The translations under genes and the position numbers were made by a program. Below, piece after piece: positions 8,944-10,703 of a DNA stretch of 64,000 bases. The DNA is taken from NCBI RefSeq assembly GCF_056712565.1, contig NZ_CM160072.1, one strand, 5' to 3'. The notes under the pieces were generated by a model that did not search any database, was not told where the DNA came from, and worked only from the letters and a program-made list of their open reading frames with translations. The stretch's first letter is position 1, and the number at the start of each line of letters is the position of its first letter.

Positions 8944-10703
8944 TTAATACCCCGCCGTTAAATCATCCACCGAGCGCGGGTCGGATGCACCGTACAGCTC
9001 ACCGTCCGGCCCAATCATAATGCTTTGTGTACTGCCCATCGCCTCTTTCAGCGCCACTTTCTGACCTTTTGCTTCCAGCAGCTTGATCGTATCCGGGCTA
9101 AACCCTTTTTCGACACGCAGCTCGTCCGGCAACCACTGATGGTGGAAACGCGGCGCATTGGTCGCTTCGGCGACGTTCATTCCATAATCGATGCTATTCA
9201 CCACCATTTGCAGCACAGTGGTGATAATCCGGCTACCGCCTGGGCTTCCGGTGACCAGCCAGGTTTTACCATCCTTGACCACAATGGTTGGTGACATCGA
9301 CACAGCGGGCGTTTATTCGGCCCGACGGCGTTGGCATCACCGCCCACCAGCCCGTAAACGTTCGGTACGCCTGGTTTGGCGGAGAAATCATCCATTTGGT
9401 TATTAAGCAGAATACCGCTCTCGCCCGCGACAATGCCCGTACCGAAGGTGGTATTCAGCGTATAGGTCACCGCCACGGCGTTACCGTCTTTATCCACTAC
9501 TGAGTAATGGGTAGTTTGATTACTCTCATAAGGCGCAAGCTTGCCAGGACGAATTTCGCTGGATGGCTTCGCTTTATTGATATCGATTTGATCGGCAATA
9601 GATTTGGCATAGGCTTTATTGGTCAGCGCCTGCCACGGTACTTTGACAAAATCCGGGTCGCCAAGATATTCCGAGCGGTCGGCATAGGCGTATTTCTCAG
9701 CTTCTGCCATGATTTGCATCGCGTCGGCACTGCCAAAGCCGTACTTCTGCATATCGAAGTTTTCCAGAATATTGAGGATTTGTACGATATGAATACCGCC
9801 GGAAGATGGCGGTGGCATGGAGTAAACCTGATACCCGCGATAATCGCCGCTTATCGGTGTGCGTTCGACCGCTTTATATGCCGCTAAATCTTCTTTGCTG
9901 ATCAAGCCACCGTTTTTCTGCATCTCCTGGGCAATCTGTTCCGCTATCGTGCCTTTGTAGAATTCATCCGGGCCGTTTTCGGCAATCATCTCCAGGCTCT
10001 TTGCCAGGTTCGCCTGCACCAGCTTGTCGCCCTTTTTCAGCGGTTCGCCCTCTTTCCAGAAGATAGCTTTGCTGTTTTCGTGGTTCGGCAGCACTTCACT
10101 GCCGTAGGTTTTGAGATCGTCAGCCAGCGCGTCGTTAACGATAAAACCATCGCGTGCCAGTTTAAACGCCGGTTGCACCACTTTATTCAACGGCATGGTG
10201 CCGTATTTATCCAGCGCCAACGAGAAACCCGCTACCGTACCGGGTGTGCCGGAAGCCAGATGCGAAGTGAGTGATTTTTTGCTGTCCGGGTTGCCCTGAT
10301 CATCGAGGAACATATCGCGGGTCGCTTTGGCGGGTGCCATTTCGCGGAAATCGATAGCCGTGGTATTGCCATTTTTCGAGCGGATCAGCATAAAACCACC
10401 GCCGCCCAGATTCCCTGCCTGCGGATGCGTTACTGCCAGCGCGTAGCCCACCGCCACGGCGGCATCAACGGCATTCCCGCCCTCCTTGAGGATATCCACC
10501 CCCACCTGAGTGGCAGTAGCATCTACAGACGCCACCATTCCCTGCTTAGCGCGTACCGGATGAAAGACATCTTCCTCCACACCATAAGAAACAGGTGGCG
10601 CGGCTACCGTACTAAAACAACTTCCTGTGAGCAGAGCAGCAATGGCCACCCGGCGTAAAAACGTCGGTTTTATCATCGTTATTCTCCAGAGATTAAGGGG
10701 CAA
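8944..10703 (-). pseudogene. ggt: Gamma-glutamyltranspeptidase gene disrupted by a 1-nt frameshift near 9298-9303
   Basis: The 501-aa ORF (9198-10703) matches the GGT signal peptide, large subunit and start of the small subunit (autoprocessing Thr in ESNQTTHYS), then runs into out-of-frame residues after NKRPL. The 119-aa ORF (8944-9303) in another frame matches the GGT C-terminus (SMSPTIVVKDGKTW...DDLTAGY). Confidence 0.75.

Follow-up and report, generated by a model that had tools for sequence, protein, structure and literature searches.

The ggt locus of the window

Gamma-glutamyltranspeptidase (GGT) of Escherichia coli cleaves glutathione and gamma-glutamyl peptides in the periplasm and thereby provides a source of amino acids (PMC8062742). 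We analyzed the ggt gene within a stretch of 64,000 nucleotides of contig NZ_CM160072.1 (NCBI RefSeq assembly GCF_056712565.1), hereafter called the window. An earlier note, made from the letters of this DNA, had claimed that ggt is split here by a 1-nucleotide deletion in the region coding for the small subunit, and that two overlapping open reading frames (ORFs) on the minus strand, lying in different frames, together make up GGT. Both claims agree with what we found, the former by an alignment with a single gap to strain ATCC 11775 and the latter by the match of the two ORFs to successive parts of the same protein family profile.

The gene order of the locus is ugpQ-yhhA-ggt-yrhB, as it is around intact E. 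coli ggt. The 5' ORF reads as GGT through ...GPNKRPL and then continues CRCHQPLWSRMVKPGW..., while the 3' ORF reads (V)SMSPTIVVKDGKTW... and runs to the end ...DDLTAGY (Table 1). When compared to the NCBIfam GGT equivalog NF007187, which has 581 positions, the 5' ORF scores 1017.6 bits (cut-off 990) and covers positions 1-464, and the 3' piece covers positions 464-581. The profile coverage thus breaks at position 464 between two frames, and no single continuous ORF extends over the large and the small subunits, whereas relatives have one unbroken ORF of 577 amino acids. The 5' ORF also matches Pfam PF01019 (499 bits, model positions 2-397 of 512), as well as the E. coli GGT structures PDB 2E0W and 2DBU.

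The start codon annotated in the relatives is the ATG that matches window position 10676 (577-amino-acid protein WP_000595129.1). The ORF of 501 amino acids described in the earlier note does exist, but the product that starts from this ATG has 492 amino acids, and the end of the feature has to be moved from 10703 to 10676. Translation from the ATG returns 458 native residues, which correspond to the signal peptide, the entire large subunit and residues 1-71 of the small subunit, followed by 34 out-of-frame residues. The conserved threonine nucleophile is present at the autoprocessing site, where Thr388 coincides with the first residue of the 2DBU small chain, and it precedes the break, as had been proposed. 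The GGT allele of sequence type 95 (ST95) is three residues shorter than that of K-12 near the signal peptide.

Table 1. Positions of the ggt reading frames and associated features in the window
Feature	Position	Strand	Description
5' ORF as listed	9198..10703	(-)	501 aa, start at upstream TTG
3' ORF as listed	8944..9303	(-)	119 aa, start GTG
ggt 5' part as translated	9198..10676	(-)	492 codons + stop; ATG at 10676, TGA at 9198-9200
ggt out-of-frame tail	9201-9302	(-)	34 residues, then TGA at 9198-9200
ggt 1-nt deletion site	9301..9302	(-)	coding-strand C absent between these two positions
ggt 3' remainder, native frame	8944..9300	(-)	118 codons + stop, SMSPTIVV...DDLTAGY; detached from 5' part
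Autoprocessing/catalytic nucleophile Thr codon ACT	9513..9515	(-)	residue 388 here = Thr391 in K-12; intact, upstream of break
G+C-rich hairpin, 11 bp	8911..8938	(-)	just past native ggt stop, between convergent ggt and yrhB

A single absent base disrupts the reading frame

We compared the locus with 5,426 complete RefSeq E. coli genomes. A megablast search with positions 8900-10750 returned as top matches the ST95-type genomes of phylogroup B2 ATCC 11775, UTI89, S88, IHE3034, APEC O1 and HS13-1, each match spanning 1,852 bases for a query of 1,851 bases. The pairwise alignment with ATCC 11775 covers 1,851 bp and shows no difference other than one absent C on the coding strand. The same gap of one nucleotide, which is not a multiple of three and hence disrupts the frame, separates the window from HS13-1. 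At 9301/9302 the coding strand changes from CTGTCGTCGATG to CTGTGTCGATG, so that the codons CTG TCG TCG ATG become CTG TGT CGA TG and, of the two TCG codons for Ser462-Ser463 (K-12 numbering), the first is destroyed. On the plus strand, where the absent base is a G, the window reads CGACACAG instead of the expected CGACGACAG. The position and the nature of the lesion had been correctly recognized in the earlier note, which reported cgacacag in place of an expected cgacgacag near 9298-9303.

Outside ggt, the window is hardly different from HS13-1. The two can be aligned over the full length of the window (NZ_CP026491.1, 2487032-2551032) with only six substitutions in addition to the ggt indel. 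None of the complete RefSeq genomes is identical to it, and the best matches are of the ST95 type, for example HS13-1, PU-1, UTI89 and S88.

The deletion recurs in independent assemblies

The exact product of 492 amino acids is listed in 35 blocks of a public gene-position index, a collection that holds approximately 153 billion gene positions, and all 24 of the contigs that we read carry it. The carriers thus number 24 contigs or more, drawn from three sources, NCBI, ENA and Logan. They include NCBI isolate assemblies (GCA_053191745.1 and GCA_958329195.1), ENA metagenome assemblies (ERZ14694921 and ERZ27285345) and Logan assemblies of SRA runs (SRR13502494, SRR27904596 and SRR27904773), and the longest carrier contig measures 5,093,009 bp. 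At the DNA level, the same deletion was confirmed in all carrier loci that were checked (L004-L014), and the same lesion is therefore found in independent sequencing data sets.

Single nucleotide polymorphisms (SNPs) in the flanking regions separate at least three haplotypes among the carriers of the deletion. In particular, GCA_053191745.1 differs from the window at positions 509 and 6146, and the metagenome contig ERZ14694921 differs from it at positions 13249 and 16001, which indicates that the carriers are distinct isolates with a common allele. At position 6146 the window has a C, while both HS13-1 and GCA_053191745.1 have an A. In yhhY, which encodes an N-acetyltransferase, this private substitution turns codon 123 from GAT into GCT and replaces aspartate with alanine, and it distinguishes the source of the window from the other carriers of the ggt deletion. 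Since the allele recurs in independent assemblies that can be told apart by their SNPs, we conclude that it is inherited within a small group of closely related isolates. Overall, we consider the deletion to be a real and heritable pseudogene mutation of the chromosomal ggt in a small clonal, ST95-like (phylogroup B2) sub-lineage of E. coli that is predicted to be GGT-null, with a probability of about 0.9.

Some observations weigh against this conclusion. The frameshift allele occurs in none of the 5,426 complete RefSeq genomes and is hence rare. Among the 5,085 genomes matched by a 121-nucleotide probe, the highest identity is 99.2%, a value that reflects the one gap, and all 5,085 are without the deletion; a 61-nucleotide probe matched 1,257 genomes, all of them within the 95-99% identity band and with a maximum of 98.4%. 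A 45-nucleotide probe across the deletion found no match in the JGI metagenome contigs that were scanned. Part of the recurrence could be due to one strain that was sequenced repeatedly, although the SNPs resolve at least three haplotypes. Finally, we infer the loss of processing and of GGT activity from the sequence. A literature search on the carrier accessions, and on ggt together with pseudogene and ST95, returned nothing.

A second null allele and the role of selection

In the same 90% protein cluster we detected a GGT product of 324 amino acids, for which the public collection has entries in 67 blocks. It derives from a nonsense substitution, GAA to TAA at codon 325 in the large subunit (E325*; P0010; L015:2501-4234, also L016 and L017). 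Because its ggt background differs from that of the window at 35 nucleotides, E325* must have arisen separately from the frameshift allele. The two alleles resemble each other in that they affect the same gene in the same genomic context, are restricted to one lineage and occur in many public assemblies. They differ in the type of lesion, since E325* introduces a stop codon into the large subunit and the window allele shifts the frame in the small subunit. Also for E325*, no exact 61-nucleotide match was found among the complete RefSeq E. coli genomes.

The existence of two null alleles may suggest that the inactivation of ggt is adaptive and that selection favored the loss of periplasmic GGT in this host-associated clone. 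In support of this, E325* is independent and circulates in another E. coli lineage, and the frameshift allele is old enough for SNPs to have gathered in its flanks. On the other hand, both null alleles are missing from the 5,426 complete genomes, 5,422 of which retain ggt at 80% coverage or more, and drift in a dispensable gene would be expected to yield a pair of rare null alleles in a collection of this size. We therefore regard adaptive loss as improbable. The same low probability applies to the broader proposal that the loss of ggt was repeatedly selected in host-adapted E. coli clones, with the ST95-like frameshift and E325* as two instances and GGT acting as an 'antivirulence' factor or being dispensable in the host. 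GGT has a role in promoting colonization in Helicobacter, Campylobacter and Francisella, and the proposal for E. coli would contrast with it. With no evidence of selection found, we infer that the loss of ggt is neutral and reflects drift in a dispensable gene.

The deletion is unlikely to be an assembly error or to be rescued by recoding

The presence of an intact ggt in the source strain, with the absent base being an artifact of sequencing or assembly, is even harder to sustain. Indels of a single base are the commonest assembly error, and an artifact would also fit with the lack of the allele from every complete RefSeq genome. However, the same deletion is found on contigs from different archives, whose names in the ENA assemblies are of both the SPAdes style (NODE_..._cov_) and the MEGAHIT style (k141_), and the SNPs in the flanks of these contigs are not shared by all of them. 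The deletion does not lie in a homopolymer, which had already led the earlier note to consider a sequencing slip less likely, and the occurrence of the identical allele in many independent assemblies confirms this reasoning. Moreover, the assembly of the window is not prone to indels, since that in ggt is the sole one over 64 kb when compared to the nearly identical HS13-1. We therefore rejected a sequencing error, on the basis of the independent assemblies with distinguishing SNPs and of the absence of any other indel in the window. We also rejected a systematic error of long reads at a methylation motif because neither GATC nor CCWGG, the Dam and Dcm motifs, occurs within 30 nucleotides of the site.

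It is hardly credible that active GGT is still made, either through ribosomal frameshifting or through a restart that produces a C-terminal fragment able to complement the N-terminal one: the native 3' frame is still open and GTG and ATG codons lie right at the junction, but we rejected both routes because the stretch from the deletion to the stop contains no -1 slippery heptamer (X_XXY_YYZ) and none of the in-frame restart codons is preceded by a Shine-Dalgarno-like sequence, and in addition a signal peptide would be missing from a restarted fragment whereas the N-terminal part would be exported, all other E. coli encode ggt as one continuous ORF and not in the split architecture that relatives share when a frameshift is programmed, and the codon of Ser462 is itself destroyed.

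Predicted consequences for the GGT protein

By alignment to PDB 2DBU and 2E0W, Leu458 is the last native residue of the product and corresponds to residue 71 of the 190 residues of the small chain, which makes Ser462 (K-12 numbering, as for all E. coli residues below) the first residue to be lost. The break detaches 119 of the 577 residues of the protein, all of them from the small subunit, which loses 63% of its length (119 out of 190). It falls inside the conserved PLSSMXP motif, and the second half of the motif is lost: the product reads ...KRPLCRCHQ... in place of ...KRPLSSMSP..., and GSPGG is encoded in the other frame only. As a result, neither the PLSSMXP motif with Ser462/Ser463 nor the oxyanion hole formed by Gly483/Gly484 is in frame with the nucleophile. 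The lost region also includes Arg513 and Arg571.

These residues are known to be required for the function of the enzyme. In the E. coli enzyme, the substrate is bound through its alpha-carboxylate by Ser462 and Ser463, and its gamma-glutamyl carbonyl is held by the main-chain amides of Gly483/Gly484 (PMC6769717). In Bacillus licheniformis GGT (BlGGT), short deletions inside the PLSSMXP motif leave the enzyme neither autoprocessed nor active (PMC6769717), and the loss of more than nine C-terminal residues kills the enzyme (PMC8062742). In addition, autoprocessing of E. coli GGT is blocked by either R513A or R571G (PMC8062742). Since the second half of PLSSMXP, Ser462/Ser463, Gly483/Gly484 and Arg513/Arg571 all lie downstream of the break, neither autoprocessing nor catalysis is expected.

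Translation from the normal ATG would yield a precursor of 492 amino acids with intact signal peptide, large subunit and threonine nucleophile. Its small subunit would be native over 71 of 190 residues only and would end in a nonsense tail of 34 residues. This precursor would be exported but would neither be autoprocessed nor catalyze gamma-glutamyl transfer, and it would probably be unstable and degraded in the periplasm. The earlier note had predicted a truncated enzyme lacking most of the small subunit. The extent of the loss is as predicted, but judging from the residues that are missing the product is most likely an unprocessed and inactive precursor rather than a partly working truncated enzyme. 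E. coli ggt mutants leak glutathione (PMC8062742). A GGT-negative phenotype is predicted for the strain, which would not be able to draw amino acids from exogenous glutathione or gamma-glutamyl peptides and would leak more glutathione.

Intact E. coli ggt (K-12 b3447; WP_000595129.1; PDB 2DBU, 2E0W) shares with the window the same locus, signal peptide, large subunit and threonine nucleophile, and the intact ST95 allele is 100% identical to the window ggt at the DNA level apart from the one base. The window gene differs in that it loses the frame at Ser462 and acquires 34 unrelated residues. The regions affected are the same as in engineered processing-deficient GGTs, namely E. coli R513A and R571G and the PLSSMXP deletions and C-terminal truncations of B. 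licheniformis. The engineered variants carry point mutations or short deletions introduced in the laboratory and have lost processing and activity, whereas in the window the entire region is removed at once by a natural frameshift and the phenotype is predicted. The case is thus one of a well-known gene with an ordinary, lineage-restricted frameshift.

Neighbouring genes and features

The hairpin just past the native ggt stop (-21.3 kcal/mol, z = -3.5) is unchanged and is presumably a terminator. It has no T-run and was not flagged by a terminator consensus scan, and scanning 8500-11000 for sigma-70 and terminator consensus sequences returned counts close to the shuffled expectation. No polar effect of the ggt break is expected, because this strong hairpin and then the convergent yrhB lie 3' of ggt. 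The product of yrhB matches the Imm35 immunity family.

In the annotation of nearly identical ST95 genomes, two other loci near ggt contain internal stops and are labelled as pseudogenes. The first is yhhZ/tssD (6503-7681), a type VI tube/effector gene of the Hcp family, whose product has 392 amino acids in the E325* lineage, and the second is yrhD (8267-8422). The window is identical to HS13-1 across both of them. Further along, the window hosts two carbohydrate-utilization clusters. One lies in the livJ-rpoH interval (24445-28754) and is composed of mannose-family phosphotransferase system (PTS) components IIA-IID, a phosphoglycerate dehydrogenase and a DapA-like synthase. The other lies in the nikR-yhhJ interval (approximately 48290-53890) and is composed of a GntR regulator, a galactitol-type PTS, an FGGY kinase, HPr and a class II aldolase. 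Neither cluster is known to occur at these positions in K-12.

Implications

The significance of these results hardly extends beyond the annotation of strains. The window ggt should be labelled as a pseudogene rather than 'corrected', a GGT-negative phenotype is predicted for the small ST95-like clone, and CTGTGTCGATG offers a one-base marker to track this clone in isolates and metagenomes. Taken together, the frameshift and E325* show that E. coli can do without ggt well enough for the gene to be lost from time to time.
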